The translations under genes and the position numbers were made by a program. The notes beneath the pieces are model-generated. The model did no database searches. It was not told where the DNA came from and was given only the letters and a program-made list of their open reading frames with translations. A stretch of 64,000 nt of DNA from Terriglobales bacterium. Its GTDB lineage: Bacteria; Acidobacteriota; Terriglobia; Terriglobales; Acidobacteriaceae. Below are positions 9,569 through 59,116 of this stretch, one piece after another. The stretch lies in the NCBI GenBank assembly GCA_035652655.1, contig DASRDJ010000381.1, positions 25,102 to 89,101 on the forward strand, written 5' to 3'. The stretch's first letter is position 1. Each line of letters begins with the position of its first letter.

Positions 9569-9611
9569 AATGACCGGCTGAACTTGGGAGAAAACGTCCA
9601 TCGACTCAAAC

Positions 9612-11084: not shown

Positions 11085-11148
11085 AGTGCTAGTGCACGAA
11101 AGTCTTTCGAAATCCGCACGCAAATTTGCACCAAACGAGACGGAGAGA

Positions 11149-14442: not shown

Positions 14443-14459
14443 GATCCCTATTCAAATCG

Positions 14460-37682: not shown

Positions 37683-38783
37683 CTACCAGATGCCCTTGTC
37701 ATTGCCCGTAAATCGGAAGGACACAAATGCAGCGGTCGCAAGAATCGGAAGGATGGCTAGGCGCGCCACCGCTCGAATATTTCGGCTGCGCCCATTCTCT
37801 GCGAGTTGCAGCATGTAGAGGTTCGCCGCCTCCGGCATGAGGGGCACACGCACGAATTTGCGATCGACATATGTGCGATCAGAAACGAATTTGGTTGCCG
37901 CAGTAACCAGAGGCGGGAGAGAGACAGATCCTCCACCAAAACGCACACCATGTTCGCAGACGATGGTCAACAGCGTAGCCACGCCCGGCCACACAGAACT
38001 CTCGGACGCGAGATCTTTCAGTTTCTCGAAGTTTATGGCGTTACGTCTTACCGCGCCAAAAATGTTAACGATATCCGTCAGACGAATGTAGTAGTGGCGA
38101 TACATTCGCTGCAGCGTGGCGATGATAATCCTGTCCTCTTGGGTCGGAATCGGGAGAGTATAGTCGCCGAATCGCGCTTTCACTCGCCTCGACAACACAC
38201 CCTCGGCAAGTCTTTCCTGCTCGCCCGTTTGTCCTAGACAACCAATGTGGATTTCTACCAACTCGCCGAGCCCGGGCACAGTGAAGTTGAATTTATGGGC
38301 CAGGCGATCTCCCCAGCTCTGGGTTTGGCGAACGGCGCCGAAATCCTTTTCAAGCGCTGCGCATATCTCGTGATCGTCGCCAGACGCCAGCAGGTCTACG
38401 TCACTTCCAGTATCTGGCCAATGATCGAGCGTCTTCATGGCTAGTACTACATAACCCTTCCTGTGAAGGGAGCGCAAAATTTTGTCCAACATGGCAAGCA
38501 GGTTTTGAGAACGGTCGCGTTCTGTCTGCAGCCTCGACCGCAACACTTGGGATGCGCCCTGGCGAGCGGCAACAAAGTAAGGTTCCAGGATTTCGAGTGA
38601 GCGACGCAGCACGCGCTGGTTCGTCGACCGATCCAATAGATTTTCGACGGCCGGGGTAGGGAGGCGACGGACATGCGCGAGGGTATCTTCGAATTTCTCC
38701 TGATTGCCGCCCACTTGGGACGCCAGGAGAATTGTGCCCAGTATCTCAAGCGTCTGCTGATTCTCAGAATCACTTTTTGGCAT
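37683..38783 (-). CDS. uncharacterised nucleotidyltransferase family protein (PF14907-like)
   Basis: GYVVLAMKTLDHWPDTGSDVDLLASGDD (G-S-D-x-D NTase core). ATG at 38783 overlaps the upstream stop by 14 nt. The track ORF extends to 38837. Confidence 0.65.
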   Translation of the reverse strand: MPKSDSENQQTLEILGTILLASQVGGNQEKFEDTLAHVRRLPTPAVENLLDRSTNQRVLRRSLEILEPYFVAARQGASQVLRSRLQTERDRSQNLLAMLDKILRSLHRKGYVVLAMKTLDHWPDTGSDVDLLASGDDHEICAALEKDFGAVRQTQSWGDRLAHKFNFTVPGLGELVEIHIGCLGQTGEQERLAEGVLSRRVKARFGDYTLPIPTQEDRIIIATLQRMYRHYYIRLTDIVNIFGAVRRNAINFEKLKDLASESSVWPGVATLLTIVCEHGVRFGGGSVSLPPLVTAATKFVSDRTYVDRKFVRVPLMPEAANLYMLQLAENGRSRNIRAVARLAILPILATAAFVSFRFTGNDKGIW

Positions 38784-39768
38784 GGATGCTTTTGTCCTCG
38801 GCCTTCGGTGGAGAACGGTCGCAACGAGCGAGACCATTCTCGATGGCTGTACCTTCTTCGTAATCGTTCCAAGTTGCGATCATCACAAAAGGCATCGGGT
38901 GATCGGCGTCGTTGTTTTCCGCAAAGACCCGAAGCGTGTCTTGTAGCGTCTTGCCGCAGCGCTGGTCGATACGGCGATTAAGGCTCCAGGATGCTTTTGA
39001 GTCATCGAAGCCAGGCCAGACAGTCCCAACTGTAATCTGATCGCTTCCCTTGGAGCGCATCTTCTTGTAGAAGTTTTGCAGATAGTCTTCTCCCCATTCG
39101 CTTCCGTCGGTCGCCCACCCTTTCGGCCCGGGATGCACCCATGCGTATTGGCCGTCAAAGGCAGACGAATACTGTGGCGGAGGATTGTCCTTGTAGATAA
39201 GGAGTGGCGGGGACTCCCAATGACTCACCATGTCCCGGACTTGTTTCCAGTCCGTGTTGCCTCTTTTTGGGAAGATAAAGACTACCGGGCGGCCTTTGTA
39301 TAGAAGGTAGGCGTCCCGCCCGGACGCTTGCGGTCCGATGTATTTCGAGTATGCAGTCGAGAAGGCGTCTAGAGCATCCTCGGTCGCGTGGCCGTCGTCT
39401 TCTTCCGTTTCGTCGTACATCAGCGCTACGTGAAAGTGTTCCTGGCTCGCCATCTGCTGGATGAGGGCGTAGCTGCGATCGAGAAAGGGGTGCCGCGCGC
39501 CATACCAGTCGACAGCAAATGCGTAGATGCCAAGACCCTTCGCTTCCTGAATCTGCTTGCGAATTACCGCAGGGTCGTTGCTGTTGTAGCCGACTTGAAC
39601 ATGATCGGTGTCGCCGAACCACGGCTGAAAGGCAGCGATTACCTTGGGTTTTTGATCGCCGCGTGATAAATCTCGAAAGGTAAGGTCGCGAGAACGGTGG
39701 TCACACGAGTTCGGCGCAACCGCGACAGCGATCAGCAGCGAGAGCAAGGTATGTTGATAGAGTCTCAT
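38770..39768 (-). CDS. secreted TIM-barrel glycoside-hydrolase-like protein (GH71/GH99-like)
   Basis: Signal peptide; KGLGIYAFAVDWYG and VMIATWNDYEEGTAIENG resemble the WND(Y)xE motif of GH71/GH99-like families. Family not resolved by eye. Confidence 0.6.
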   Translation of the reverse strand: MRLYQHTLLSLLIAVAVAPNSCDHRSRDLTFRDLSRGDQKPKVIAAFQPWFGDTDHVQVGYNSNDPAVIRKQIQEAKGLGIYAFAVDWYGARHPFLDRSYALIQQMASQEHFHVALMYDETEEDDGHATEDALDAFSTAYSKYIGPQASGRDAYLLYKGRPVVFIFPKRGNTDWKQVRDMVSHWESPPLLIYKDNPPPQYSSAFDGQYAWVHPGPKGWATDGSEWGEDYLQNFYKKMRSKGSDQITVGTVWPGFDDSKASWSLNRRIDQRCGKTLQDTLRVFAENNDADHPMPFVMIATWNDYEEGTAIENGLARCDRSPPKAEDKSIHAKK

Positions 39769-39820
39769 CGGTCAAGGTTGATGAATGCATAACGCTCTTT
39801 CGAAAGAGACGATGTCGCAA

Positions 39821-40366
39821 TCAGAAAACGTTATCCCCCACTGATTGCAGATACCTTACGTACCATCGGTCGCTGCCCGGAGTCATGAGGACCAGATACT
39901 TGTGCGTCGATGTAGACGTGGAAATGAGTTTGTCGCCATCAAACACTCGAACTTCCAATTGAGCCTGATCTTCGAGTTGCATTTCCCCACCGTCCAGGGA
40001 GTAGAAGACCGCCTTAACTTTGTGTCCACCATCGGAGTACTGGGTGCGGAGTTTCGAGGTCTTTTGTTCCGCGACACGGAGCGCGAGTCGACGTTTTGCC
40101 TCGCCCACGAAATAGTCGTCCAGCAGATCGGTGCGGTTGGCATCCATGCAAACCGCGAGATCTTGCCAGGCCTGCGCATAGTCGTGCGCCACTGCCGCTC
40201 CGGTACGTTCCTCGATTGGTCGCGGCGCCAGAGAATCGGCGGAGAGAGTCACTCGTGGTAACGCGGACGCCGCGAAAACTACGACCGTCAGACAGAAAAT
40301 TGCGACACTGACGATGCCGACAAGCATCAGCAAGAACCAACCGACATGGCGAGGCCGGGCAATCAC
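39821..40366 (-). CDS. membrane-anchored hypothetical protein
   Basis: GTG at 40366 overlaps the upstream TGA (GTGA). N-terminal TM (WFLLMLVGIVSVAIFCLTVVVFAA) followed by a roughly 130-aa alpha+beta domain. Confidence 0.6.
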   Translation of the reverse strand: MIARPRHVGWFLLMLVGIVSVAIFCLTVVVFAASALPRVTLSADSLAPRPIEERTGAAVAHDYAQAWQDLAVCMDANRTDLLDDYFVGEAKRRLALRVAEQKTSKLRTQYSDGGHKVKAVFYSLDGGEMQLEDQAQLEVRVFDGDKLISTSTSTHKYLVLMTPGSDRWYVRYLQSVGDNVF

Positions 40367-41244
40367 TGTCGACCTCCCCAAGCAATTTCGTTTCCCACAA
40401 CCACTCCGCAGGCGACAGAGATTCGAGCGGGGCCTGAAACGGAGAATTGAGCGACCGCGCGATCTTTCTTGATCGGCGTATCAACGGTGCTCTTCCCGGC
40501 GCCGTCTATCTTTGTGAACGAGACGATCGTACCGTCGGGGAGCGGATTGCCTTTGCAGTCGCGAATCGGATCGGTTTGCAGAGTGATCGTTGTGCCGGCA
40601 GGAACCGCTGTCATTCGCAATCCACAGGCTTCCGATGCAACTTGCTGGATTACCCTTGGCTCAGTGGTGTCGTCAAGTTTCGCATTTACCTCAAGTGTTC
40701 CTTGGCTCGCTCGCGAGTCCATTTGAAAGGAAGCAATTCCAAGAACCGTAGGGACAGTTTTTTCGATTGGTTTCTCCCCAGCGGGTGAGATTCGAAACGT
40801 TACGTCTGCCGGTGCGAGAACCACGTTACTGTGTTGGTCAAAAGCGATGGCAGTGGCGTTCACTGCGTTGCGTGTCGAGACCGGGACCCTGGAAGGGTGG
40901 AGCAAGAAGCCCAGGCGCTTAGCTGGAGCCGGTCGCACCTCTAGATTCTTCGTTGCGCAACTCCCCCCAGCACACACCACGACTTGATAGATTCCCGACG
41001 ACGAAACATCATCGCCCGAAATCGAAGCGTCTTTGCCAAACTCGATTTCGCGTCTCAGAGCGCGGCTCGGTCCTAGAAGGTAGAGCGTACCTCTACCTTG
41101 GCCCCTAACTGAGATGGCAAATGGGCTACCGGCGGATACAGTGGCTGGGACGCGCAGAGCCGGTTCTTGCGCGCTCAAGAAGGTGGATAGAGTCGCGAGG
41201 AACAATCCGTAAGACCACCATTGGGGAGTACGCAGGGGCATCAT
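40363..41244 (-). CDS. secreted beta-rich hypothetical protein
   Basis: Signal peptide MMPLRTPQWWSYGLFLATLSTFLSAQ. ATGA overlap with the upstream gene. Confidence 0.65.
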   Translation of the reverse strand: MMPLRTPQWWSYGLFLATLSTFLSAQEPALRVPATVSAGSPFAISVRGQGRGTLYLLGPSRALRREIEFGKDASISGDDVSSSGIYQVVVCAGGSCATKNLEVRPAPAKRLGFLLHPSRVPVSTRNAVNATAIAFDQHSNVVLAPADVTFRISPAGEKPIEKTVPTVLGIASFQMDSRASQGTLEVNAKLDDTTEPRVIQQVASEACGLRMTAVPAGTTITLQTDPIRDCKGNPLPDGTIVSFTKIDGAGKSTVDTPIKKDRAVAQFSVSGPARISVACGVVVGNEIAWGGRQ

Positions 41245-42344
41245 GCACTCGGGGCAGTGTAGTGATTCACGGCAACGTGGTAGTCATGCATGCGGTTGGC
41301 GACATCTGCGGGAATGTCTACCGCGAAGGGAACCGGAGCCTGGGGTTGCAATGCCTGGTCGACGTACCCGTCCGAGACCCAAATGGCCTTGCCGCTCGTA
41401 TCGTAGAAGACCGCCAGAACCTGGGCAATGTTCACAATTTGACCGCTCTGATTGACCAATGAGCCTTTTAAGATCGATCTCCCGAGGGCATCTTTGCTGA
41501 CGGACTGGTTCTCAACCGAGATCACTGGGTCAGCGCTTGCTGGGATGAGTAAGGGGTGAGCGTCGATCCTGACACTCTTCACTTGGCTCAGTCGGGCGCC
41601 GGGAAAGTCAATTCGGTAAGGCGAGACTTGCTTGGGCAGCAAACTATGAGAGATCGCATCAAAACTGTCTTGCTGCGCAAGCACCGAACCATCTGACTTT
41701 AGAAGAGCGGCACTGATATTGAGGTACGCTGGAACCGTATCCTCGTTTTCGACTTCTCCCACGACTACAACACTGTCGGGGCGCTCCACGGCGTTCATCG
41801 AGAGGATTCGCACTTGGGGAGAATCAACGGTGGCGGTGCCCCAATCATCGGATCTTCTTCCCACAACATCCCAGCGCAGATAGTTAACAGGGAGAACGTG
41901 CAACGGAACCTTAGCGAAGTTCGGCCTGGGCCAAACGACTTTCCATGCATCTCCACTGCGCACGACCTGAAGATCCCGTACCTCCGCCAGGGAGCCGACG
42001 GCACTGGACCAGTTCAAGCGCACGCGAAGCATCGCTTGGCCAGCACTCGCATGAACTGGCCAGATGTCGAAGCTTTGAAGATTCGAGTAGGTTCGCAAGC
42101 TCCCGTCGGCGCCTGCAATCTCGCGAACGAAATCCGCCTGCTGCAAGTCATTGGAGTGGTCGAGCCCGCGGTAGGCTCGATCCCAATCACGTGCTTGAAT
42201 GCTCGCCATGAGCGCTCGGACGGCTTCGTCGGGAGTGCGGCCGCTGCGTTCAGCTTGAATTTTCAGGCCACCAGCTTGCAGCCAGCCAGCCGCCAGTAGA
42301 GCAGCAGTCAGGACCACGATCAGTATTGCGAGCCCACGTTTCAC
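41241..42344 (-). CDS. membrane-anchored hypothetical protein with a duplicated beta-sandwich-like module
   Basis: N-terminal TM and GTGA overlap with the upstream gene. Two similar modules: VVVVGEVENEDTVPAYLNISAALLKSDGSVLAQQDSF...VSPYRIDFP and ILKGSLVNQSGQIVNIAQVLAVFYDTSGKAIWVSDGY...PVPFAVDIP. Confidence 0.65.
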   Translation of the reverse strand: MKRGLAILIVVLTAALLAAGWLQAGGLKIQAERSGRTPDEAVRALMASIQARDWDRAYRGLDHSNDLQQADFVREIAGADGSLRTYSNLQSFDIWPVHASAGQAMLRVRLNWSSAVGSLAEVRDLQVVRSGDAWKVVWPRPNFAKVPLHVLPVNYLRWDVVGRRSDDWGTATVDSPQVRILSMNAVERPDSVVVVGEVENEDTVPAYLNISAALLKSDGSVLAQQDSFDAISHSLLPKQVSPYRIDFPGARLSQVKSVRIDAHPLLIPASADPVISVENQSVSKDALGRSILKGSLVNQSGQIVNIAQVLAVFYDTSGKAIWVSDGYVDQALQPQAPVPFAVDIPADVANRMHDYHVAVNHYTAPSA

Positions 42345-44095
42345 GAGCGCACCTCGTCGGCGTAGGTCCTTTCCTCTACATACGATGGCAACGTTACAAC
42401 GCGAGCTTGCTTAAATGCCTTCTCCGGCAGCAGCAATGCGAAGAGAATCGCGAGAATGCTGCTACCGATCGGCAATGTACCCCACAGCAAGCCTTCCCAA
42501 GGAGTCGGCATCGTGTCGGAAGTGACTTTACGAGCGGGAGGCACGTCGTCTTTTGACCAAGCTGTGATGGCACCTGAGTCATACGTTTCAATCTGACGCC
42601 ATCCTGCGAAGACGAGAAGTGGATTGTAGTACGGGTCGTGAACAAAAATGAATTTCAATCCATAGCGGTTGGCGTGCTGCAACATCTCTCGCAGAGAATC
42701 CATTCCCGCGGCGCCGAAGAACTTTGCGCTTGTGAGCTGAGCGGAACCATAGCGCGTCATCTCAGGCAACAGCCGAGCCGAATTGTACTCGCCGTCGACG
42801 CTGGTCGCGGTTGAGTACGTAGCGACCTTAGACATCGAGTTACCGAATCCCAAGGTCAGGTACCGGTATTGATCGTGACCGTCACGGTTGAGGAAATTCA
42901 CGACCGCATCAACGTTCAGGCCGCCGCTGGTGTGGAAGGGACTCCAATTGAGCCACCCGAGGGCTAGGGACATAGTGAATACCGCTGCCGCGGCAAGGGC
43001 GAACGCACCGACGTCGCGGAATCGCTTGACCATGTCTTCCGCGACAGCTCCCACAATAGGCAAGGCCAACAACGTCGCCCAAAGCGTGAAACGCTCAAAC
43101 GTCAAAATCTCGAAAGCTCGGCCAAAGAGCAGTCGTGGCAGAGGCGTCGTGCCACCCAGACCCAACAGGAAAGCGATCCAGAACGCGATCAGCAAGATCC
43201 TGAGCCGCGGCACTGACGCACCTTTGATAACGACGAAAGGCAGCGCAAGGATCATCGCTCCATAGGGAACGACGAAATAATTCACGCCGTGAACCCAGTT
43301 CATCAGATAGTTCAAGCGGCTCCCGTGGGGAATCGGCATCTGTTCGATCGGGTGTCGGATGATCGCTATCCAGTAGGGAAGAAGAACAATCCCAACGCCG
43401 ACAATCGTTAAGAGAACGAACACCAGCCCTCGGCCCAGAACGGCAGATCCGCTTTTCTCTTCAGATCGCGCATCGGACCAGGCAAGCCAGAGCACGGGCG
43501 CCGCGAACAGAACCGATCCAAACAAGAGTGTGACGTGGTGGGCAGAGGCTGCCGCAAGCCCGAGCACAAGCCCCTTGAGCAATGCCCGCCACGAGCCCAA
43601 ACGGGACCACTCATAAAAATAGGGAAGCGCCAACAGGTAGAGCGGGGCGGAGAGCGTTGTCGGCAGTTGGCCGGCCGAATAAACGAGAAAGGAGACTGTG
43701 CCGGCAAAGACGGAAAGAAGTGCGGCTAAACTCGCTGCCCCATCGTCAACCCAAAGCCGAGCGAAACGCCAGGTGCCGACCGCAATCAGAATCACCGCAA
43801 TCAACTGCACCAACATGAACGCTTCTGTGAGCCCGACAACGTGCGCAAGCAAGGCGATCCATTGATGAGTTAAGGGCGGATAGGTTGTCTGCGAGAATCC
43901 CGCGAACCACTTCTCATTCCACGGATTGAACCAGTGCTGCGCGTAGTGGGAGCCGAAGAAAATATGCAGATTGCAGTCGTAAGAAGTTGTGGCGGGGAGT
44001 TCCATCAGAAGCAGGGGCCCGTGAATCACGATCGCAACGAGCACAATCATCGACAACGGGATCGGCCGCTGCAGATAGCTTCTGGTTGTTGTCAA
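42341..44095 (-). CDS. polytopic membrane protein, putative GT-C-fold glycosyltransferase (COG5617/YfhO/PMT-like)
   Basis: More than 10 TM segments. First-loop pattern SYDCNLHIFFGSHYAQHWFNPWNEKWFAGFSQTTYPPLTHQW and a roughly 150-aa soluble C-terminal domain. TTG start at 44095 (alternative ATG at 44050). Confidence 0.65.
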   Translation of the reverse strand: MTTTRSYLQRPIPLSMIVLVAIVIHGPLLLMELPATTSYDCNLHIFFGSHYAQHWFNPWNEKWFAGFSQTTYPPLTHQWIALLAHVVGLTEAFMLVQLIAVILIAVGTWRFARLWVDDGAASLAALLSVFAGTVSFLVYSAGQLPTTLSAPLYLLALPYFYEWSRLGSWRALLKGLVLGLAAASAHHVTLLFGSVLFAAPVLWLAWSDARSEEKSGSAVLGRGLVFVLLTIVGVGIVLLPYWIAIIRHPIEQMPIPHGSRLNYLMNWVHGVNYFVVPYGAMILALPFVVIKGASVPRLRILLIAFWIAFLLGLGGTTPLPRLLFGRAFEILTFERFTLWATLLALPIVGAVAEDMVKRFRDVGAFALAAAAVFTMSLALGWLNWSPFHTSGGLNVDAVVNFLNRDGHDQYRYLTLGFGNSMSKVATYSTATSVDGEYNSARLLPEMTRYGSAQLTSAKFFGAAGMDSLREMLQHANRYGLKFIFVHDPYYNPLLVFAGWRQIETYDSGAITAWSKDDVPPARKVTSDTMPTPWEGLLWGTLPIGSSILAILFALLLPEKAFKQARVVTLPSYVEERTYADEVRS

Positions 44096-44288
44096 TGCCT
44101 ACGGCTCCTTGGAAAGCGGTAAAACCGATCATTGGATTCGGGAGCATCTCCGTAGGGTTGGATCAAAAACCGCTGAGACTTCGATAGATCTCCGTGATTC
44201 GCCTGATATCCGGTCCAACCGCCGCCGACAGTCCGGGCATCAGAGAGACGCTGGACGCCAATCTTCAGGAGGTTGCAAACGCGGGCCC

Positions 44289-47200
44289 TTGGTTTACCTG
44301 CCTCACAAGTCGCGGAGATTTGTGTGCCTTGCGATGCTTCTATTCATCGGCGGCACAACTTCGCTGTGGGCGCAGACTTTCGAGGTCGGGTCTCCGGACA
44401 ATAGCCAACCCAATCACCAGCATCAAAAAGCACAACCACATCAACCATCGTCCGACTCAGGAATGGGCTGGGGATCGAGTATTGAGGTAGCACGAGAAGC
44501 ACGCGCCGCGCGCGAAGCCTTGCAACGAAATGAGAACAGGTCGGCAGCCGCGCACGCTGCACGTGCTGCCAAGGCCGCACCGCAGAATCCTGATCTCTGG
44601 TTCCTCTATGCGTACGCGGCCCGATTGGCGGGAGACTATCAAGCCTCGGTTAATGCATACACTCGAGGCTTGCAGGCGCGCCCTTCATCGATAGAGGGCC
44701 TTTCCGGTCTCGCGCAAACCTACGCGAAGATGGGGCGCTCAAAAGAAGCAGAGGAAATGCTTAAGCGCGTTCTTGCCGCGAATCCCTCGAGCGACGCCGA
44801 TCTGCGGCTGGCGGGTGAGTTGACGCTCAACACTGATCCGAAGTTGGCTCTGGCTTACCTAAGCCGAGCCGATGCCATCCGCCCCTCGGCCAGAACCGAG
44901 CTGTTGATGGCACGTGCTTACCAGCGCGCTGGAGACCAGAATAAAGCCAAGGAGCTACTTGAGCGCGCCCGCAACCGCGCGCCACGTGATTCAGAGGTGG
45001 TGCGGTCCGTAGCCGCCTACTACCGAGACACAGGTCAGTATGACCTGGCGATCAGTACTCTAAAAAGCCTGCCGTCCGAAGCGCCCTCTTATCTGTCTGA
45101 ACTGGGCTACACATATGAACTCTCAGGCAAACGCGCTGAAGCTGCCGATATATTTCTAAAAGCAGCGAACGCCGCGCCCAGTGAAGTCGAACTACAGCTG
45201 ACGGCTGCGCAGGCCCAGGTAAACGCAAAGCGTGCGAGTCGCGCCGAACCCTTGCTGCAGCGAGTTGAGGCTTCAGCTCCGAGCCATTATCGCCTTCACG
45301 CAATCCGCGGTTCGATCGCCCGCAGCGCTCATGACAATGGCATCGCCATTCGCGAATACCAGACGGCTGTGAGCGCGATGCCAGCGTCGGTGCCCGAAGG
45401 TATGTTGTATCCGATCGCTCTGCGCTTGGAACTTGCTCAGTTATATCGCGAAGCGGGGCGGGCCGAGGAATCGGACAGCCAAGCGGAGACTGCCCGGTCA
45501 GCGCTCAGCCAGTTAGATATTCAAGGGCAGGAGAGGCCGGAGTTTCTTCGATTAAAAGCCGCGAGTGCCATCGATTCCGGTGACTATGCGGAAGCAGAAG
45601 CTGATTTTCACGAGGCACTCCAGTTGCAACCTTCGAACGTGAATGTGCTGCTGAACTACGGCAATCTTCTGCGAAGCACAAAGAGGGGTGCAGATGCCGC
45701 GAAGATGTACGTGAAGGTGCTGGATGTCGACCCCCAGAATGCTCCAGCTCTCGAGTCCCTAGGGTATCTGGCGCGAGAATCGGGCGACCCACAAGCTGCC
45801 GCTGAATACTTCAACAAGCTGAACCGCGTGGATCCCAATGACTACGTGGGCTACCTTGCAATGGGTGACCTGGCAACGGACACGCGGGATTTCAAAGCGG
45901 CACAGGCTAATTACGAGCATGCCTACGCCTTGGCCAAGGACAATCCTCTGATCATTGCGCGGGCGATGAACGCAGCGCTCGAAGATCATCAAATACCAAC
46001 CGCGAAGTACTGGCTAGACCGCGCAAGCGAAACGCAGAGGACGAACCCGGAGGTCATGCGTGAGCATGAACGCTATCTGACTATCACGGGGAACTATCAG
46101 GAGTCCGCAAAACTGGGATACCAGGTAATTCAGAAATTGCCGCGTGATCCGGAAGCACCCGTTTATTTGGCTTACGATCTGCTTTTCATGAATCGTTATG
46201 ACGAAGCGATGGAGATTGTTCGTCGTTTCCAGCCAGTTCTTCCCAAGGATAAGGACCTGCCGCTGATCGCAGGATACGTGCTTGCCCACGAAGGTCAGAA
46301 ACAAGAGGCCGTCAAGGCATTTTCGCGGGCCCTTCAGAACGATCCCAACATGGCGACTGGCTACATGAACCGGGGCTACGTGTGGAACGACATGCGTATG
46401 GCGACCAACGCAGAACAGGACTTTCGCAAGGCGCTGATTTTGCGCCCTGACTATGGTGAAGCGCATTTAGGATTGGCATACTCACTGTTGCAGTTGCGCC
46501 GGCCGCAAGCGGCCCTCAAGGAAGCCGATCTGGCCGAGAAATCACTCGGCGAATCGGGAACAATTCATCTTGCCAGAGCTGAAGCCTACCGGCAGAGATC
46601 GATGTTCGAGAAGGCGGAAGGTGAATATCAGCAGGCCCTCAAGACGCAGACCGGTGATGCCAACATCTACATGGCGCTTGCCGAAACCCAAGTTCGGCTC
46701 CGCGACTATCAGGCGTCCATCACTTCTCTTCAAAAAGCACTCACGATCTCTCCCAACAACCACCTGGCTAGCGCTCAAATGGCAACGTCGTACGCCACAC
46801 TCGGCAATGCACCGAGTGCTCTTCAGGCAGTTGGAAAGGCTGAAAGCGGCGAAGGGAACACTGACTACCGTACCCTACTTGCCACCGCGGGAGCGCTGCA
46901 AATTCTGGGGCAGCGCGATCAGGCGATGGAGCGCTATTCGCGTGCGCTGGACCTCTCAAATGCCGATCGCCTGCACGTCAGACTGGCTTTGGGAAGATTT
47001 TTCGCTCAACAGCACAAGGCTGCAGACGCCCAACAGCAAGTGTCTCTGGGGTTCGCGGAAGCTCGTGTTTCGGATCCAGACATCGTCACGGCTGAGGATT
47101 ATCTGGAGGCCGCCGACATCCTGATGTCGATCAACCAGTTTCCGCTCGCGCAGCAGTTGTTCGCGCGTGCACAGTCCCTGGGAGCCGAGGACGTCACGGT

Positions 47201-48494
47201 TGCGGTGGGGATCGCGAATGCGTCTCTAGCGATGGGCAATACGAGTGACGCTGAGGCAGCACTTGCCAGCGTTCAATCGACCGATGATATTGAGGCCAAG
47301 CAAAACTACGCGTACCTCGTTGCCCGTGGAAACGTCTACCGTCAGCGTGGTGACAGCTATCATGCGCTCTCGGCTTTCGCCCAGGCAAACGAGATTGATC
47401 CAGAAGATCCGTCCGCGCGCAATGCGGAGTTTGAACTTTCGGAGGACGAAGGGCGCCAGATTACACAGAACCTCGCAGTGGGGTCCCAATTTCACGTAGC
47501 GCCAATCTTTGAAGACACTAATATTTATCAGCTGGATGCACGGCTTCGTGGGTTCCAAAACGGCGGCCTTCTGTTGCCTCCTCCTCGCCATTCCGTCGAA
47601 ACATTTGCAGACGCGCGCTATCACCTGCATATTGGCGGTCTGCCAACCATCAGTGGTTTTGTCGGAGAGCGCAACGCAAACGGAACCATTTCGATTCCGA
47701 GCCAGCTTCTGATTCAGAAAAGGAATACGCTCGACACGATCTTCAACTTCGGCGTAACGCCCGTTTTGCGATTGGGGAATCTGAGGTTCAGTGTGACACC
47801 AGGACTTCAGTTCACACTTCGAAGAGACACGCTCGCTCCGGTCGACATGAATCAGAATCTGTTCCGGCAATTTTTGTACGTCTCCAGCAGTCCGATCGGA
47901 AATTGGCTTTCATTTTCAGGTAACGTCATTCGCGAAGCGGGGCCATTCACGCAACAGACGCTACACTCCAGAGACTTTTCTGGAACGCTGGAATTTCGGT
48001 TAGGGAGGCCTTGGGGGAAGACCGCGTTCTTGACGGGCTACACAGGACGCGATCTGCTCTTCCGTCCCTCCATCCACGAATACTTCACCACCAGCACGTA
48101 CGCGGGGGTGGAACGGCGTTTCGGAGAAAGCCTCAGAGTCACAGCCATTGGCGAATATCTTCGAGCTTGGAGAGTCGAAGGCACTGAATTTGCCATCGCA
48201 CAGACAATTCGTCCCAACTTTACGGTGGACGCCAAAATAAACAAGCACTGGTCGATCAATGCAGGAGGCCTATGGTCTAGAGGCGAAGGCTTTCACTCGT
48301 ACGATAGCGTCGACAGCCGCTTCCTGGTGTCGTACGTTCGCGAGACGCGCGCGAAACGGACGGATGGCGTGCAAAGCGCCTCGGTTTCTTACCCGATGCG
48401 GTTTTCCTTCGGTGTTCAGCAGCAGACTTTCTACGATTTTCCAGGGCACAGCCACACCTCCATCGTCCCGGTAGTTTCTTTTACGTTGTTCTAA
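44289..48494 (+). CDS. giant TPR-repeat protein with C-terminal outer-membrane beta-barrel-like domain (BcsC/PgaA/PelB-like architecture)
   Basis: A TTG at 44289 gives the leader MVYLPHKSRRFVCLAMLLFIGGTTSLWAQ (alternative ATG at 44334; track start 44109). About 950 aa of TPR-like repeats, then about 430 aa with an alternating beta pattern ending ...VPVVSFTLF. Confidence 0.8.
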   Translation: MVYLPHKSRRFVCLAMLLFIGGTTSLWAQTFEVGSPDNSQPNHQHQKAQPHQPSSDSGMGWGSSIEVAREARAAREALQRNENRSAAAHAARAAKAAPQNPDLWFLYAYAARLAGDYQASVNAYTRGLQARPSSIEGLSGLAQTYAKMGRSKEAEEMLKRVLAANPSSDADLRLAGELTLNTDPKLALAYLSRADAIRPSARTELLMARAYQRAGDQNKAKELLERARNRAPRDSEVVRSVAAYYRDTGQYDLAISTLKSLPSEAPSYLSELGYTYELSGKRAEAADIFLKAANAAPSEVELQLTAAQAQVNAKRASRAEPLLQRVEASAPSHYRLHAIRGSIARSAHDNGIAIREYQTAVSAMPASVPEGMLYPIALRLELAQLYREAGRAEESDSQAETARSALSQLDIQGQERPEFLRLKAASAIDSGDYAEAEADFHEALQLQPSNVNVLLNYGNLLRSTKRGADAAKMYVKVLDVDPQNAPALESLGYLARESGDPQAAAEYFNKLNRVDPNDYVGYLAMGDLATDTRDFKAAQANYEHAYALAKDNPLIIARAMNAALEDHQIPTAKYWLDRASETQRTNPEVMREHERYLTITGNYQESAKLGYQVIQKLPRDPEAPVYLAYDLLFMNRYDEAMEIVRRFQPVLPKDKDLPLIAGYVLAHEGQKQEAVKAFSRALQNDPNMATGYMNRGYVWNDMRMATNAEQDFRKALILRPDYGEAHLGLAYSLLQLRRPQAALKEADLAEKSLGESGTIHLARAEAYRQRSMFEKAEGEYQQALKTQTGDANIYMALAETQVRLRDYQASITSLQKALTISPNNHLASAQMATSYATLGNAPSALQAVGKAESGEGNTDYRTLLATAGALQILGQRDQAMERYSRALDLSNADRLHVRLALGRFFAQQHKAADAQQQVSLGFAEARVSDPDIVTAEDYLEAADILMSINQFPLAQQLFARAQSLGAEDVTVAVGIANASLAMGNTSDAEAALASVQSTDDIEAKQNYAYLVARGNVYRQRGDSYHALSAFAQANEIDPEDPSARNAEFELSEDEGRQITQNLAVGSQFHVAPIFEDTNIYQLDARLRGFQNGGLLLPPPRHSVETFADARYHLHIGGLPTISGFVGERNANGTISIPSQLLIQKRNTLDTIFNFGVTPVLRLGNLRFSVTPGLQFTLRRDTLAPVDMNQNLFRQFLYVSSSPIGNWLSFSGNVIREAGPFTQQTLHSRDFSGTLEFRLGRPWGKTAFLTGYTGRDLLFRPSIHEYFTTSTYAGVERRFGESLRVTAIGEYLRAWRVEGTEFAIAQTIRPNFTVDAKINKHWSINAGGLWSRGEGFHSYDSVDSRFLVSYVRETRAKRTDGVQSASVSYPMRFSFGVQQQTFYDFPGHSHTSIVPVVSFTLF

Positions 48495-48561
48495 GAACGC
48501 TCACGCAGCCGAAGCTGGAGCGAAGAAAGTTAAGTAAAGCATTATCGACTCGACGGGCCCG

Positions 48562-50583
48562 ATGGAACAAGTCGCCAACACAACGATCAGCAACCTGGTT
48601 TCTCCTCCTGAGCCTGATCGAAGCACATTGAGAAGCCGCATGCTGCGTGGCAGCGCCATTCTGCTATTCAGTACGGGACTCGTCAGCGCCACGAACCTGC
48701 TTTACAACATTGCAATTGCACGCGGACTTGGTGCGGCCGGTTTCGGGCATGCGACGGCGATCTACACCCTGCTGATGTTGCTTTCGGCGGTTACTCTGGC
48801 CTACCAGTTAGTCTGCTCCAAACTTGTGGCCAAGTCCCCGAACCTGGAAGGCAAAGCCGCAATCTACAAAGACCTTCTCCGGCGATCCTGGCAAACGGGG
48901 CTTCTACTGGGGACTCTCATTGCGATTGGGAGTCGGGGAATCGCCGCTTATTTACACCTGCCATCGGCACACGACATCGTTCTCCTGGGTGTTGGAACTG
49001 CCATCTACGTGCCTCTCGGCGTGCGGCGAGGAATGGTCTTGGGATTGTACGACTTTACCCGCCTTGCCGTTAACTTCGTTGTCGAAGCGATCGTAAAGAT
49101 CGTCGGCGCAGTAGTTTTACTTCACTATGGTTTCGGTGTTAGCGGAGTGATTGCAGCCGTTGTGGGATCCATCGCGGTCGCATATCTGGCCGCTGTTCCT
49201 GGGGTCTCCCTCAATACCATTGCAAATCACCAGAGCCGAGCCTCTTTTCGGGAAGGAATGCAGGCGATTGTGTTCTTTTGCGGTCAGGTAATCATCAGCA
49301 ATCTGGATATCCTTTTCGTTAAACATTACTTCATCGCTGATGTTGCGGGGCAATATGCCGCAGTCGCCCTGGTGGGGCGAGTTGTTTACATGTTTTCGTG
49401 GTCGGTCATCAGCAGCATGTTCCCGGTTTCAGCAGCGTCCACCAAGCGCACGTCAAGTCGCACAGTTCTGAAGACCGCGCTCTGGGTGGTGGCCAGCATG
49501 ACAGCAATGTTCACGCTAGCGGCCTGGATTGCCCCTGCGTCCTTATGGCGCGCCGTGTTAGGCGCGAACTTTCTGAATGCGAGCCACGTGTCCTTCTCGT
49601 CGTTATTGGCTTCGTACAGTGCGATGACCAGCATCTACTCGCTGGCCGTTGTTCTGTTGGCGTACGAGATGTCTCGCAAGATTGCCAACGCAACCTGGGT
49701 CCAATTGGCTTTCAGCGCCCTGCTGCCGGCTGGAATCGCGTTATTCCATGACTCGCTGCAGCAAGTGATCATGGTTCAGTTGCTGCTCATGCTGGGGCTC
49801 TTGCTGGCGGTGAGCCTCCCATTCATTCCGGAGATCGTCTCTGAAGAAAACGATTCATTCTTTGCAGGGACTCTTCCGGGATTCTCGAAAGTACGACGTG
49901 CTCACGAATCTGAGGTGATTGCTGAATTCTTGCGAGCAGAGTTTTACCAGCCGGAATTCGATCGTTACCGCGAAGAGTTCAGCAGCGTGGTCGCGAATGC
50001 GGACCTCATGGACGCGCGTCAGAATGCGATTCGAAAAGCCCTGTTGTTTCGACGTCGAGGAAGGCTGTGGCGTGAATTGCCTGATGATACGCAATGGTGG
50101 GAGATCGAGCTTCAGCCGGCGGATCTGCCCAGAATACGCGCATTTCCGCGGAAGCAATGGCGCAGGTTCGCTGAGGGTGATTTCTATCTAACACGTATGG
50201 TGGCTCGAATCAGAACGACGGTGGAGTCGCGGGAACGCGATTGGTTTTCTGAGAAAGTTCGTTCGGTGGCTGCAGATCTGCAAGGCAACCGAGTGCCTAA
50301 TGCGGTTCTACTCATTGGCGTGGATGAACGCAGCCCCCTGACCATTATCGAGGGCAACCATCGGATGGCGGCCGCGATGTTGGTAACACCCGAAACCGTC
50401 AGTCACCAGTTTCGCTTCTACTGCGGTCTCTCGCCGAGGATGACACGATGTTGTTGGTATCAGACCGACGTTCGCAGCTTGACGCGGTATGCCAGCAACA
50501 TTGTTCGCTATCTGTTCCACGACAGGGATTTCTTTATTGAAAGGCGGTTGCGCAACAAGGCTGGTGAACCTTCAGGGGATTGA
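48562..50583 (+). CDS. MOP/PST-family polysaccharide transporter (Wzx/PelG-like) fused to a C-terminal soluble domain
   Basis: The first ~420 aa are multi-TM (LLFSTGLVSATNLLYNIAIARGLGAAGFG...). The last ~250 aa are soluble and Arg/Trp-rich, with LTIIEGNHRMAAAMLV. Confidence 0.85.
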   Translation: MEQVANTTISNLVSPPEPDRSTLRSRMLRGSAILLFSTGLVSATNLLYNIAIARGLGAAGFGHATAIYTLLMLLSAVTLAYQLVCSKLVAKSPNLEGKAAIYKDLLRRSWQTGLLLGTLIAIGSRGIAAYLHLPSAHDIVLLGVGTAIYVPLGVRRGMVLGLYDFTRLAVNFVVEAIVKIVGAVVLLHYGFGVSGVIAAVVGSIAVAYLAAVPGVSLNTIANHQSRASFREGMQAIVFFCGQVIISNLDILFVKHYFIADVAGQYAAVALVGRVVYMFSWSVISSMFPVSAASTKRTSSRTVLKTALWVVASMTAMFTLAAWIAPASLWRAVLGANFLNASHVSFSSLLASYSAMTSIYSLAVVLLAYEMSRKIANATWVQLAFSALLPAGIALFHDSLQQVIMVQLLLMLGLLLAVSLPFIPEIVSEENDSFFAGTLPGFSKVRRAHESEVIAEFLRAEFYQPEFDRYREEFSSVVANADLMDARQNAIRKALLFRRRGRLWRELPDDTQWWEIELQPADLPRIRAFPRKQWRRFAEGDFYLTRMVARIRTTVESRERDWFSEKVRSVAADLQGNRVPNAVLLIGVDERSPLTIIEGNHRMAAAMLVTPETVSHQFRFYCGLSPRMTRCCWYQTDVRSLTRYASNIVRYLFHDRDFFIERRLRNKAGEPSGD

Positions 50584-50601: not shown

Positions 50602-51468
50602 TTACTGCTGCGCGGAGCCCGGCTCTATCCTCGTGGCTTCATATTTCGTTCCGTCGAACTCAGCGTGGACAACGACGTCCGCCCCCTGCTTGAGGCGGAG
50701 CCTCTCATTTGGCGGAAGGGAGCGAAGGCCGACTTCAAAGGAATTTTCTCCAGACTGCTCGTAAAGGGTGAGATGCGAATCGCGAAGATCAATTACCGCG
50801 ATGCGCCCCGTGAATACGAAGGCACTGCCGGGTCGTGCCATAACGTTGATCTTCTCAGCGACGCTGGGTCCGTCAGAAACTCCCTGAAAATTTATCTGGA
50901 CGAGTGACCCTGCGACCAGTTGGGACGCGTTCATCCCTTGATCCCCAGAGCGAATTTCGGTCCGCGGCGTCACGCGCAAATTCAGGGGCTGCGCGGAGAT
51001 GATATCGCGCACTTTGAGTAGTCTGCGATCGGGGTCGTAACTTAGAACCTGTCCCTCGGTTTCTCCCAAAATCGAACCAGCGCCTTCAATGTGGAGCGTC
51101 TTGGCGAAAACTCTTCCGTCTTTCTGGATCGAGTCCACATAGACGCGCGTTCCGGTACGTACCTCCCGAAGTTCAGCAAGGGCGGCACCGCGCATGACTC
51201 TTGTGCGTACGTCGAAGTCGATAGTGAAGTCGCCTCCTCCGAACGCACGCAGGACGATCCGGTCATGGATAGGGTCAACCTTCCGCACAGTTCCGCCGAT
51301 CAGGCTTGCCGGGGCTGCTGCCGGTAGAGGCGCAACGTCAGGCAAGTCTGAGCGTTTTGAATTCACGACCTCAATCCCCGTCGTCGCCGGGGCCGTGGTT
51401 ATTTGCGGTGTGGCAGGGGGTATACACCCCACCAAAATCGCGAGAGACACGCTCAGCTTGAGACACAT
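50602..51468 (-). CDS. lipoprotein with three-fold internal repeat (DUF5666-like?)
   Basis: ATG at 51468 gives MCLKLSVSLAILVGC (lipobox). Three similar ~80-aa modules each end in a G..V.V...DG...A..I pattern. The track ORF extends to 51546. Confidence 0.6.
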   Translation of the reverse strand: MCLKLSVSLAILVGCIPPATPQITTAPATTGIEVVNSKRSDLPDVAPLPAAAPASLIGGTVRKVDPIHDRIVLRAFGGGDFTIDFDVRTRVMRGAALAELREVRTGTRVYVDSIQKDGRVFAKTLHIEGAGSILGETEGQVLSYDPDRRLLKVRDIISAQPLNLRVTPRTEIRSGDQGMNASQLVAGSLVQINFQGVSDGPSVAEKINVMARPGSAFVFTGRIAVIDLRDSHLTLYEQSGENSFEVGLRSLPPNERLRLKQGADVVVHAEFDGTKYEATRIEPGSAQQ

Positions 51469-51570
51469 TCGGGGTTCGGATGCTGGGATCAGGCTCAAGG
51501 GTTGGCCTGAAAAAGCGAATGTTTCAACCAAACTGTGGCCGACCAAAAAGCATCGAAGCTGCGGTTATCT

Positions 51571-52878
51571 ATGGATGCTGCCAACACATCGAGATGGCTT
51601 TTGCGAGTCGGTATCACTGCTCTCCTGGTAGGAATGGCGTCGCGCGTGAGTGCAGGAGACTTCAGGATCAGCATTCCGAAACACAGTCGGCTGACGCCCG
51701 TGCAACAGCTGAATCGCGAAGGCGTAAAGGATGCCAAGAAGGGCCGTCTTGCCAAGGCGAAGGAAAGATTTGTCAAAGCTTACCTGTTGGACCCGAATGA
51801 TCCGTTCACGCTGAATAACCTCGGCTACGTGGCCGAATTGGAAGGCGATGTCGACCGAGCCTTGCGATACTACCAGCTCGCAGCTGGAGTACAGACCGAA
51901 GCCGTGATCGACGAAGCCACGATCTCAGGGCTGAAAGGGCAACCTGTAGTTGCAGCGTTCCAATCTTCGAAAACTTCCGCCTATCAAACCAACAAGGCAA
52001 ATTTCCAGGCGATGGCGCTGATCGAAAAAGGGCGAATCTTTGAGGCAGAGCTGGCCTTGAAACGCGCTGTTCAAGCCGATCCCCAGAATCCATTTCTGCT
52101 TGACAGTCTCGGCTACGTGATGGAATCGGAAGGTGACCTGAAGGCAGCTCTCCAATATTACACAGCAGCCGAGGCACTCCATTCCGATGAGCGTGTATTT
52201 TTAACTCCTGTAAAGAAATGGCGCGGGAAACCGATCAGTGAAGTTGCCGGCCGTAGTGCGAGCGCGGTCCGAGATGCCCAGGCGAAAGGCGAGGACACGG
52301 AGACCCGCGTTTCACGGTTGAACCTCCAGGGAGTGTCAGCTCTCAATCACGCTAATGCCGCTGACGCCCAGAAGTACTTTGCCGATGCTTACCAGCTCGA
52401 TCCCTCAAATTCCTTCACGCTTAATAATATCGGCTACATCGATGAACTGGCTGGGGACCGGGAAAGCGCACAGATGTATTACGACGCGGCCCGCACAGCT
52501 CAACAATCGAGTGAGCGAGTGACGTATTCGACTCGCTCCGAAGCGGAAGGGCGGCGGATTGGATCGCTGGCGCAGACCAATGAAGGCGACGTGGACGCAA
52601 CCTTGAAGGCGATCCAGCAAAGGAAGAGACAGGCCAAACAGCCAATTCGATTGATGGTTCGCGGCGGAAACGCCATCGAGCCAGTCGGCGACTCCAAGCC
52701 GCAGGCGCCGATCAGCGTACCAACCCCAGCGTTGCCACCGGCCAGATTGCCCGAACGCGACGTTGCACCCGAGAGCGCCGTACCGCAGGTTGATCAAACG
52801 AGTTCGCCATCTGCTCCGCCTTCAACATCTCAACCTGCACCGGCGCAGCAACCGCCCTCCCCCCAGGCGGATCAGTGA
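51571..52878 (+). CDS. secreted TPR-repeat protein
   Basis: Signal peptide from ATG 51571. Three repeats of LNNLGYV.E.EGD...A..YY..A and a Pro/Gln/Ser-rich tail. Confidence 0.8.
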   Translation: MDAANTSRWLLRVGITALLVGMASRVSAGDFRISIPKHSRLTPVQQLNREGVKDAKKGRLAKAKERFVKAYLLDPNDPFTLNNLGYVAELEGDVDRALRYYQLAAGVQTEAVIDEATISGLKGQPVVAAFQSSKTSAYQTNKANFQAMALIEKGRIFEAELALKRAVQADPQNPFLLDSLGYVMESEGDLKAALQYYTAAEALHSDERVFLTPVKKWRGKPISEVAGRSASAVRDAQAKGEDTETRVSRLNLQGVSALNHANAADAQKYFADAYQLDPSNSFTLNNIGYIDELAGDRESAQMYYDAARTAQQSSERVTYSTRSEAEGRRIGSLAQTNEGDVDATLKAIQQRKRQAKQPIRLMVRGGNAIEPVGDSKPQAPISVPTPALPPARLPERDVAPESAVPQVDQTSSPSAPPSTSQPAPAQQPPSPQADQ

Positions 52879-52940
52879 AGCACTGGCCCCGTGCCGCAAG
52901 CTCTGCTCGTCGTTATGAGACCGTATCAAGGAGTCGTGTC

Positions 52941-55779: not shown

Positions 55780-56510
55780 TGAGGGCTCGGTTTCAAGATC
55801 AGATCGCGGGATAACTTGCCGAGAAGTTGAAGGAAATGAAGTGCCACTGCAGTACCAGCTTTGCTTTTGCCGGCGTGTCGTAAGCCGAACTGAAAGGGAA
55901 TTTCCTTCGCGGATTGAATGCGTCCGCGCACCAGAATTTCTAACAGCAGCTTGAAACCCTTGCTCTCGAATTCGAGCCCGTCAATGGCATCTCTGCGAAC
56001 GATAAAAAAGCCGGACATCGGATCCTTAACACGAATCCCCTTTCGTTGAAAGGGAAGAGTCGCCAAAGTACTCATACGTGAGATCGCAACGCGAATCGGA
56101 TTCCACCCCTTGACACCATCCTTAGCGGCATACCGGCTTGCGATTGCGATGTCACTGCCGTCTGCCATCGCTCCAAGCAAGCCAGGCAGAAGGCTCGGTG
56201 GATGCTGAAGATCTGCATCGATCACTCCGAGCAGGTTTGCGTCGGTGTGGACCCAGCCATGGATTACGGCGCCGGCCAGTCCCTTTTCTTCCTTTCTTGA
56301 CAGAAGTCTTACGTGGGGATCTCTTTGCGCGTAGTTGAGGACGATGTCGGCAGTTGTATCGGTGCTGTTATCGTCGACGACGACGATCTCGTAGGGGAGA
56401 CCGAGTGGCCGCAGGCTGTCGCTCACTTCGTTGAGAAGACGCTCAATATTTCCCGCTTCATTCAATGTCGGTACCACCAGCGCAAGCTTTTCGTTCATAT
56501 CACTGCTCAT
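55776..56510 (-). CDS. GT2 polyprenyl-phosphate hexose synthase (DPM1/Ppm1/GtrB-like)
   Basis: LALVVPTLNEAGNI, YEIVVVDDNSTD, GVIDADLQHPP and FKLLLEIL...EIPFQF..R..GKSK are typical of the dolichol/polyprenol-phosphate mannose (or glucose) synthase family. Confidence 0.88.
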   Translation of the reverse strand: MSSDMNEKLALVVPTLNEAGNIERLLNEVSDSLRPLGLPYEIVVVDDNSTDTTADIVLNYAQRDPHVRLLSRKEEKGLAGAVIHGWVHTDANLLGVIDADLQHPPSLLPGLLGAMADGSDIAIASRYAAKDGVKGWNPIRVAISRMSTLATLPFQRKGIRVKDPMSGFFIVRRDAIDGLEFESKGFKLLLEILVRGRIQSAKEIPFQFGLRHAGKSKAGTAVALHFLQLLGKLSRDLILKPSPQ

Positions 56511-56615
56511 CGTCGAGTAACTCCAACTTCGAGGTACGCTTGAGATGATGACAACCTTTCCTTAAGTTGTTCTGTCTTTGAAGTTCCGTACAGGTTAAGA
56601 AAAAACTACGGTGAA

Positions 56616-57314: not shown

Positions 57315-57326
57315 TCTGGGATAGTC

Positions 57327-57836: not shown

Positions 57837-57857
57837 TTATTGATCCTTTACGTTGCT

Positions 57858-59098: not shown

Positions 59099-59116
59099 GG
59101 ACTCCCCTCCCCGGTT

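Follow-up and report, generated by a model that had tools for sequence, protein, structure and literature searches.

What kind of envelope glycan, if any, would be made by a locus that joins a polytopic GT-C-like membrane protein to a large TPR protein ending in an outer-membrane barrel, and that fits no canonical polysaccharide pathway? The locus occupies positions 37683–50583 of a 64-kb stretch of DNA, the window of this analysis, from a Terriglobales bacterium (assembly GCA_035652655.1, contig DASRDJ010000381.1, positions 25,102–89,101 of the forward strand). It consists of two divergent units. Our answer is that these units belong to one conserved module, which would use a polyprenol carrier to build an envelope or extracellular glycan and would then export that glycan across the outer membrane; we regard the case for this reading as evenly balanced. 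It draws on observations of which genes are present and which canonical parts are missing, on folds, synteny and fusions, and on conservation across phyla.

Gene content and conservation in Terriglobales

All eight open reading frames (ORFs) reported in a first-pass annotation of the locus are present at the positions given there. The genes, with one domain of separate interest, are as follows.

42341–44095, minus strand: predicted GT-C-fold polytopic glycosyltransferase, 584 residues; best conserved of the genes, anchoring the module
41241–42344, minus strand: p367, anchored in the membrane as a periplasmic partner domain of the GT-C protein, with a C-terminal FxLYD-type beta domain
40363–41244, minus strand: p293, secreted protein with a signal peptide; no Pfam family
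39821–40381, minus strand: p186, single-pass anchored periplasmic domain (transmembrane residues 17–35); no Pfam family
38770–39768, minus strand: GH99-like (endo-alpha-mannosidase-like) periplasmic glycosidase, 332 residues; Pfam GH99/GH71
37683–38837, minus strand: PF14907 nucleotidyltransferase (NTase), 384 residues; 37.2 bits against a cut-off of 31.2
44289–48494, plus strand: outer-membrane export component, with a signal peptide, about 1,050 residues of TPRs, a predicted C-terminal 16-strand barrel (about 47470–48494) and a terminal Phe
48562–50583, plus strand: PST/MOP-type flippase-like membrane domain (residues 1–430) with a 230-residue cytoplasmic domain; weak match to PF01943
49882–50583, plus strand: C-terminal domain of the PST-like protein, residues 441–673; Terriglobales only, no family

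The minus-strand unit, read from 44095 to 37683, is tightly packed. An overlap of 4 nt joins the GT-C gene to p367 and also p367 to p293; the overlap between p293 and p186 is 19 nt, and 52 nt separate p186 from the glycosidase gene. As listed, the glycosidase and NTase ORFs share 68 nt (38770–38837). The true start of the NTase is probably ATG 38783 (Met19), since orthologue alignments begin at NTase residues 16–49. A similar correction applies to the plus-strand unit. The TPR-barrel ORF was listed as 44109–48494 (1461 residues), and its real start is most likely TTG 44289, giving a protein of 1401 residues, because orthologue alignments begin at residues 61–74, a GGAGG lies upstream, and a good signal peptide results. 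The divergent intergenic gap, from TTG 44289 to the GT-C start, is then 194 nt.

With each species represented by a single genome, a scan for the GT-C protein gave at least 577 relatives; the comparison in Terriglobales uses the best 80 loci of these, searched by tblastn with the window proteins. All 80 are from Acidobacteriota, mostly labelled Terriglobales or Acidobacteriaceae, with GT-C identities of 63–95%; the median GT-C identity across Terriglobales is 68%, and the 584-residue protein itself is 100% identical to a hypothetical protein from a Terriglobales metagenome-assembled genome. A GT-C match is found in 80 of the 80 loci, p367 in 79, the TPR barrel in 78, p293 in 76, the PST-like protein in 73, the glycosidase and p186 in 72 each, and the NTase in 63; many of the misses fall at contig ends. 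Orthologues thus occur in the same order in 63–80 of the 80 genomes, so the eight genes are not chance ORFs. The order is kept down to 63% GT-C identity, and rearranged versions of the locus still hold all of the parts together. Conservation does not extend to the TonB and MscS genes on the flanks. Whether the two divergent units are conserved together, on which the first-pass reading hung, is answered by this strict synteny and by an equivalent module in a second phylum, described below.

These data bear on the simplest alternative, that the two units, together with the more distant GT4 and GT2 genes considered below, are merely neighbours with no common function. Promoter and terminator scans, at or near shuffled background, are uninformative and leave that alternative a little room. 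It is scarcely credible nonetheless, given strict synteny in 80 species, three kinds of fusion, parts that stay together when rearranged, and the module of the second phylum.

Proteins of the divergent units

The anchor gene encodes a protein with at least 10 hydrophobic helices and a 150-residue loop domain ahead of the last transmembrane (TM) helix, in agreement with the 8–13 TM helices and extracytoplasmic catalytic face by which the GT-C superfamily is recognized. Its structure model was built on a shallow alignment (74–100% identity) and has a predicted local distance difference test score (pLDDT) of 55 and a predicted template modelling score (pTM) of 0.63, with helices that are reasonably confident. 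When the model was compared with the PDB by Foldseek, the best 21 matches were all GT-C enzymes (probability 0.95–1.00, TM-scores 0.27–0.38), including AftA (E 2.3e-4), STT3/PglB/AglB, ALG9, ArnT, and AftD; PimE, too, is a fold neighbour. Asp40, in the first periplasmic loop ten residues past the first helix, is invariant in 26 orthologues and is kept in at least 90% of 23 relatives, down to 27% identity. The fold neighbours and Asp40 strengthen the first-pass call of this protein as GT-C-like. It is the only membrane transferase of the locus, and transfer from a polyprenyl-phosphate-linked donor is predicted.

The family of the GT-C protein is an orphan one. The window protein falls short of the cut-off for PF10131 (PTPS_related), with 15.7 bits against 26.4, a family that is placed in the GT-C/PMT clan (PMC7801869). 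Relatives do exceed that cut-off, e.g., P0320 with 31.2 bits, and of 34 relatives 7 match PF10131 and 3 match PMT_2. Sequence searches of the PDB, with the single sequence or an orthologue profile, gave nothing useful for either the GT-C protein or p367. We speak of a PF10131-like GT-C family different from the GT87 and GT83 families. The misleading name "pterin synthase-related" raised a link with the pterin cluster of bacterial structural colour; this was rejected, as papers on that cluster and their supplements do not mention the family.

A search of 1.84 billion cluster representatives yielded 826 GT-C relatives, many of them about 1,000 residues long. Inspection of the best 150 cluster representatives found GT-C::p367 fusions in 52. 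No Pfam family matches p367, and the FxLYD domain at its end was found with NCBIfam.

In the TPR-barrel protein, Pfam TPR matches span residues 140–1100, approximately. An AlphaFold2 model of the last 386 residues, from an alignment of 40 homologues, has pLDDT 87.7 and pTM 0.82, and places two TPR helices ahead of 16 beta strands, the last residue being Phe. The beta-barrel C-terminus with its terminal Phe, which had been proposed from the letters of the DNA, is thus predicted with confidence. Every Foldseek match of the barrel is an outer-membrane barrel (TM-scores 0.3–0.47); BcsC and AlgE are present, and so are many generic porins. The barrel has no Pfam match even at E 10, including DUF560 (the Slam barrel), and no match in PDB sequence searches; NCBIfam matches to PgaA and BcsC are confined to the TPR region, far under the cut-offs, and give no barrel family membership. 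BcsC itself has TPRs fused to a 16-strand barrel (PMC8892547). The modelled C-terminus is likewise a predicted barrel fused to TPRs, outside the known barrel families.

These two proteins together raise the possibility of protein glycosylation. That is, the GT-C protein might act in the manner of a PMT or an oligosaccharyltransferase (OST) on secreted or surface proteins, using polyprenol-linked donors, with the barrel serving as a Slam-like translocon. STT3, PglB, and AglB are among the Foldseek neighbours, relatives of the GT-C protein match PMT_2, and both TPR proteins have weak TPR_Slam matches; the dolichol-phosphate-mannose synthase-like GT2 of the window and the precedent of AglD/AglR/AglS point the same way. 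We nevertheless consider it unlikely. The GT-C protein has no WWDxG-type OST motif and the barrel is without DUF560, a 16-strand barrel behind a long TPR solenoid resembles the polysaccharide porins, and an endo-glycosidase, which is conserved in each phylum and in one forms a fusion with p186, is not normally needed for glycosylating proteins.

The PST-like gene begins 67 nt past the TPR-barrel gene, the position first assigned to a PST/Wzx-like transporter. The position is confirmed, and the Pfam match is weak: 25.4 bits to PF01943, under the cut-off of 28.2. The orthologue from Flavobacteriaceae (E 1e-34) scores 31.5 bits against PF13440, over the cut-off of 23. The C-terminal domain of the PST-like protein has no match in Pfam (E 10) or the PDB, and carries invariant G-N-H-R..A and C-C-W motifs, the first of which recalls ParB/sulfiredoxin-type NTP-binding domains; we make no claim for it.

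The glycosidase-like protein of the first-pass annotation proves to be GH99-like, with both catalytic acid positions kept. It scores 33.7 bits against Pfam GH99 (cut-off 33), with a nearly equal score for GH71. A profile of 28 orthologues matches the Bacteroides GH99 endo-alpha-mannosidase BtGH99 (PDB 4acy) at E 2e-9, and an invariant NDYEEGT motif aligns with NEWHEGT such that D302 corresponds to E329 and E305 to E332; both positions of the catalytic carboxylates are thus acidic. It is a borderline, divergent GH99 member. Its N-terminus resembles a lipoprotein signal, and it is probably a lipoprotein. The neighbouring p186, fused N-terminally to a GH5-family glycosidase in Flavobacteriaceae, is probably a tether or adaptor for the glycosidase. 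Neither p186 nor p293 matches anything in Pfam or NCBIfam, and p293 has no Pfam match even at E 10; the Flavobacterial counterpart of p293 bears an Ig-like Big_1/Invasin_D3 domain. The NTase was rightly taken as PF14907-like: it lies above the cut-off, its pol-beta-type GS...D.D motif is intact, and G143, D145, and D147 are invariant in 24 orthologues. PDB sequence searches, with the single sequence or an orthologue profile, gave nothing useful for it.

The wider module and its counterpart in Flavobacteriaceae

The core of the locus was well drawn at first, and its boundaries were too narrow. Five further genes of the window travel along with it.

50602–51546, minus strand: DUF5666 lipoprotein-like protein, adjoining the PST-like gene; in 61 of the 80 Terriglobales loci
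51535–52878, plus strand: second TPR protein, secreted, 447 residues; in 61 of the 80 loci
52875–54464, plus strand: PLC/AcpA-family phosphoesterase, lipoprotein-like (PF04185, E 1e-66); in 34 of the 80 loci
54526–55779, minus strand: cytoplasmic GT4 glycosyltransferase, by Pfam
55776–56510, minus strand: soluble GT2 resembling polyprenyl-phosphate-mannose synthases (DPM1 family catalytic domain), 244 residues; by match to PDB 5mlz

The PLC-like gene, seen beyond the window in L008, L011, L013 and others (about 16.6 kb), is found in three positions: beside the second TPR gene, straight after the NTase gene, or at the far edge. Its recurrence suggests a functional tie, e.g., the freeing of a glycan from a phospholipid or polyprenol anchor.

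The GT4 and GT2 genes overlap by 4 nt. Since they lie inside the locus in some genomes and a GT-C::GT4 fusion occurs in one relative, we take them, on sequence evidence, to belong to the module. The pair sits between the PST-like and TPR-barrel genes in L024 and L026 and abuts the second TPR gene in L009 and L028, and GT2 adjoins GT4 in all four of the loci where the region is visible; the Terriglobales loci were fetched within a 10-kb limit, at which GT4 is cut off in 19 further loci. The fusion, P0242 (1007 residues), is 53% identical to the GT-C protein in its first half, and its second half is 47% identical to the full-length GT4 of the window (E 5e-124).

The GT2 matches the Pyrococcus dolichol-phosphate-mannose synthase (PDB 5mlz) at E 4.5e-48 and 167 bits over residues 6–229, which strengthens the earlier suggestion of a DPM1-like donor synthase at this position. 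Its matches to ArnC and GtrB are about 100 bits lower; in NCBIfam, the best matches are PgfS, ArnC, and AglJ. It has no TM helix, and the catalytic subunits of human DPM1 and mycobacterial Ppm1 are likewise without a TM anchor. Its putative donor and acceptor are GDP-mannose and polyprenyl phosphate, sugar specificity not being readable from sequence. The GT4 has a weak match to PimA/PimB'.

A GT2 of the GtrB/ArnC/DPM1 kind, a flippase-like protein and a GT-C enzyme make up exactly the triad of GtrA/GtrB/GtrII or ArnC/ArnT systems, and ArnT is among the fold neighbours of the GT-C protein. The module might then add a sugar to the lipopolysaccharide (LPS) core, O-antigen, or lipid A, with the other genes unrelated and merely linked. 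Such systems have no outer-membrane porin, however, and GT4, the glycosidase, p293, p186, p367, and the TPR protein are conserved with the triad in two phyla and linked to it by fusions; we hold this explanation to be very unlikely. More generally, protein glycosylation and LPS modification are the less likely readings because an endo-glycosidase or a long TPR porin is not normally required for either.

Those distant homologues that carry a name come from Flavobacteriaceae (e.g., Cellulophaga, Maribacter, and Saonia); each of them has a hypothetical annotation. A scan seeded with GT-C::p367 fusions gave 80 marine or aquatic metagenome loci, which were compared by means of Terriglobales protein profiles and reciprocal searches. 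The Flavobacterial module begins with a GT2 fused to a receiver domain (REC-GT2, in 74 of the 80 loci), followed by GT-C::p367 (80), a p293-like protein with an Ig-like domain (76, with 71 in another count), a p186-like domain (70) fused to a GH5-family glycosidase (65), a GT4 (62; E 5e-71 to the window GT4), and a PST-like protein with no extra domain (56; E 1e-34). The seventh gene, seen in 35 of the 45 loci long enough to contain it, encodes a protein of 685 residues in which a signal peptide and TPRs precede a beta-rich C-terminus. The same gene order is found in Cellulophaga algicola DSM 14237 around Celal_3052, the GT-C::p367 gene (CP002453.1, about 3,499,002–3,502,091).

No NTase, PST C-terminal domain, DUF5666 protein, second TPR protein, or PLC-like gene was found in the 80 Flavobacterial loci; the NTase and the PST C-terminal domain appear from these searches to be Terriglobales-specific extras. 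What is conserved across the phyla is the role of a membrane-tethered endo-glycosidase rather than its family, since the Flavobacterial glycosidase is of another family and yet is fused to p186.

Genes for a histidine kinase and a LytTR regulator adjoin the Flavobacterial module; with the receiver domain on its GT2, they suggest phosphorylation control of the first committed step (L158, 8701–9840 and 21164–22216; L161, 8567–9706 and 21392–23090). In L158, a phytoene synthase, a phytoene desaturase, and a MerR/B12-binding light-regulator-like gene also lie beside the module (5073–8286). The adjacency to carotenoid genes is probably coincidental, because the neighbours differ in C. algicola.

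As for the surroundings of the module in the window, the GT2 and GT4 genes close a tightly packed seven-gene run on the minus strand (54526–59848). This run starts with an extracytoplasmic function sigma factor gene (59117–59848), followed by genes for a hexapeptide-repeat protein, a STAS-like protein, a 169-residue orphan with nothing in Pfam at E 10, and a P-loop dTMP-kinase-like protein, the last of which is not a conserved neighbour in the few loci showing the region. Elsewhere, a glycan-utilization cluster at 5954–15806 encodes a 1204-residue outer-membrane protein (CarboxypepD_reg plus OMP_b-brl_4), GH30, a GH38 alpha-mannosidase, and a type I phosphodiesterase, with LacI, KduI/IolB, and TPP-enzyme genes upstream. 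The segment 23638–30730 encodes two large alpha-amylase-family proteins, a DUF5752 protein, and a TreT-like trehalose synthase (GT4), probably for alpha-glucan or trehalose metabolism.

Comparison with known systems and a proposed pathway

Pfam scans took in the large ORFs across the 64-kb window and found no membrane GT2 synthase, PilZ, GGDEF, Wzy, Wzc, Wza, or ABC exporter, in agreement with the first-pass statement that the locus has no processive GT2 synthase, cyclic di-GMP (c-di-GMP) receptor, Wzy/Wza/Wzc, or ABC transporter. Rfam found no riboswitch, including the c-di-GMP riboswitch. A match to an already characterized extracellular polysaccharide or glycosylation cluster, which would have overturned the first-pass reading, was not found in NCBIfam, Pfam, PDB sequences, or the literature found; we came upon no paper on a system of GT-C plus TPR porin, and the Celal locus tags appear in no paper. 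Thus, each part is of a known kind, and the combination is undescribed in the family models, solved structures, and literature found.

The comparison can be drawn system by system. With the synthase-dependent Bcs, Pga, and Alg systems, the locus has in common a TPR solenoid with a C-terminal 16-strand barrel (as in BcsC), a periplasmic glycosidase, and extra TPR scaffolds; machines for exopolysaccharide secretion characteristically include a TPR scaffold, a porin, and a periplasmic hydrolase (PMC8892547). It differs in having no membrane-embedded processive GT2, no co-polymerase, and no PilZ/GGDEF receptor, its only membrane transferase being of the GT-C kind. With Wzx/Wzy systems, it shares a putative PST/Wzx-like protein and a putative lipid-linked intermediate to be polymerized at the periplasmic face. 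It has no Wzy match, however, the fold neighbours of its transferase are of the ArnT/STT3/ALG type rather than Wzy/WaaL, and Wzc, Wza, and an initiating phosphoglycosyl transferase are missing from the window.

The mycobacterial pathway for phosphatidylinositol mannosides, lipomannan, and lipoarabinomannan (PimA/PimB' as GT4, Ppm1 as GT2, and PimE/MptA/MptB/MptC as GT-C) follows the same logic of a cytoplasmic GT4, a DPM1-family synthase, and an extracytoplasmic GT-C. The hosts of the present module, in contrast, are Gram-negative-type diderms, with no evidence for a phosphatidylinositol anchor, and the locus has a TPR porin, a PST-like protein, and an endo-glycosidase. A GT2 synthase, a flippase and a far-side GT-C are likewise common to archaeal AglD/AglR/AglS, GtrA/B/II, ArnC/ArnT, and the endoplasmic reticulum (ER; DPM1, RFT1, ALG3/9/12, and the GH99 enzyme MANEA), the flippase being Wzx/RFT1-like in the archaeal and ER systems. 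In the case of AglD, AglR, and AglS, a GT2, a Wzx-like flippase, and a transferase that uses dolichyl-phosphate-mannose act together (PMC3871713). GH99 is a family otherwise known for processing N-glycans and mannans. The targets of all those systems are proteins, LPS, or lipid A, and an outer-membrane exporter is missing from them, whereas here the triad is joined to export machinery and to a glycosidase of the sort typical of polymer secretion. By analogy, then, the closest functional counterparts would be mycobacterial lipomannan synthesis and the AglD/AglR/AglS step, and the export half resembles the synthase-dependent systems.

The main rival to our reading comes from Pel. PelF is a GT4 enzyme and PelG is PST-like. 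The locus shares with PelA–G the component classes of cytoplasmic GT4, PST/MOP-like inner-membrane protein, periplasmic glycosidase, and TPR-barrel porin, so the Pel likeness, which is one of component class, is closer than the first-pass annotation implied. On this basis, the GT4 would be the polymerase and the PST-like protein the exporter, the glycosidase and the TPR barrel would correspond to PelA and PelB (for their roles, see PMC8892547), and the GT-C and GT2 enzymes would only decorate the polymer with mannose. A GT-C::GT4 fusion would suit such a membrane complex, and the receiver domain of the Flavobacterial GT2 could be the signalling input in place of c-di-GMP. Among the Pfam and NCBIfam matches of the GT4, PST-like protein, glycosidase, and TPR protein, however, there is no PelF, PelG, PelA, or PelB family; PelC, PelD, and PelE have no counterpart, and the locus adds the GT-C protein, p367, p293, p186, and a DPM1-like GT2. 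In addition, conservation is highest and presence most universal for GT-C and p367, which one would not usually expect of an enzyme that only decorates. A Pel-like arrangement is, in our judgement, fairly unlikely.

We return to the reading of a polyprenol-based module. Its catalytic roles, order of steps, donor sugar, and product are all inferred, as follows. In the cytoplasm, the soluble DPM1-like GT2 would load polyprenyl phosphate with mannose or another hexose, and the GT4 would build a lipid-linked primer or oligosaccharide from a nucleotide sugar. The PST/MOP-type protein may then carry lipid-linked material over to the periplasmic face. There, GT-C and p367 would elongate or polymerize the glycan using the polyprenyl-phosphate sugar, following the same logic as mycobacterial lipomannan synthesis and the ALG steps in the ER lumen. 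Membrane-tethered p186 and the GH99-like endo-glycosidase are proposed to trim or release chains, Ig-like p293 and the TPR scaffolds to guide the polymer, and the TPR 16-strand barrel to take it through the outer membrane. In Terriglobales, the PF14907 NTase, the PLC-like phosphoesterase, and the extra domain of the PST-like protein may add lineage-specific steps. The Terriglobales polymer is most likely rich in alpha-mannose, because the dolichol-phosphate-mannose synthase-like GT2 and the GH99-like enzyme both point there; this is the weakest link in the argument.

Several points weigh against this scheme. The GT-C model is of low confidence (pLDDT 55) and its TM-scores are only 0.27–0.38. 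The ORFs scanned across the window include no initiating phosphoglycosyl transferase, and MOP flippases usually carry diphosphate-linked oligosaccharides, the flipped substrate here being putative. The GT-C::GT4 fusion is a singleton and possibly a gene-calling artefact, which at least shows adjacency. The Flavobacterial GT2 is weakly similar to that of the window (E 5e-5). The profiles of the Flavobacterial and acidobacterial TPR outer-membrane proteins align in the TPR part (probability 91%) and the barrels do not, so that barrel homology across the two phyla is unproven. The glycosidases differ by phylum (GH99-like versus GH5), and the polymers may therefore differ as well. Finally, function is read throughout from sequences, folds, and gene order.

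A bolder form of the proposal is a new class of diderm envelope-glycan pathway, common to soil Acidobacteriota and marine Bacteroidota, in which a GT-C enzyme polymerizes in the periplasm from polyprenyl-phosphate-mannose and hands the product directly to a TPR barrel. We put it forward tentatively and consider it rather doubtful. If true, it would be distinct from the Wzx/Wzy, ABC-transporter, synthase-dependent, and extracellular sucrase routes.

The Terriglobales are among the most abundant soil bacteria. Their extracellular polymers aid soil aggregation, desiccation tolerance, and carbon storage, and the genes that make these polymers are largely unknown. The module described here is widespread, with at least 577 species-level genomes and thousands of related metagenomic proteins, and it is annotated as hypothetical throughout. 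The counterpart in cultured type strains, e.g., Cellulophaga algicola DSM 14237, makes the hypothesis directly testable by genetics. If the model holds, it would provide a new route for making and exporting a polysaccharide in Gram-negative-type bacteria, and a function for the PF10131-like GT-C family and for four proteins that belong to no family.

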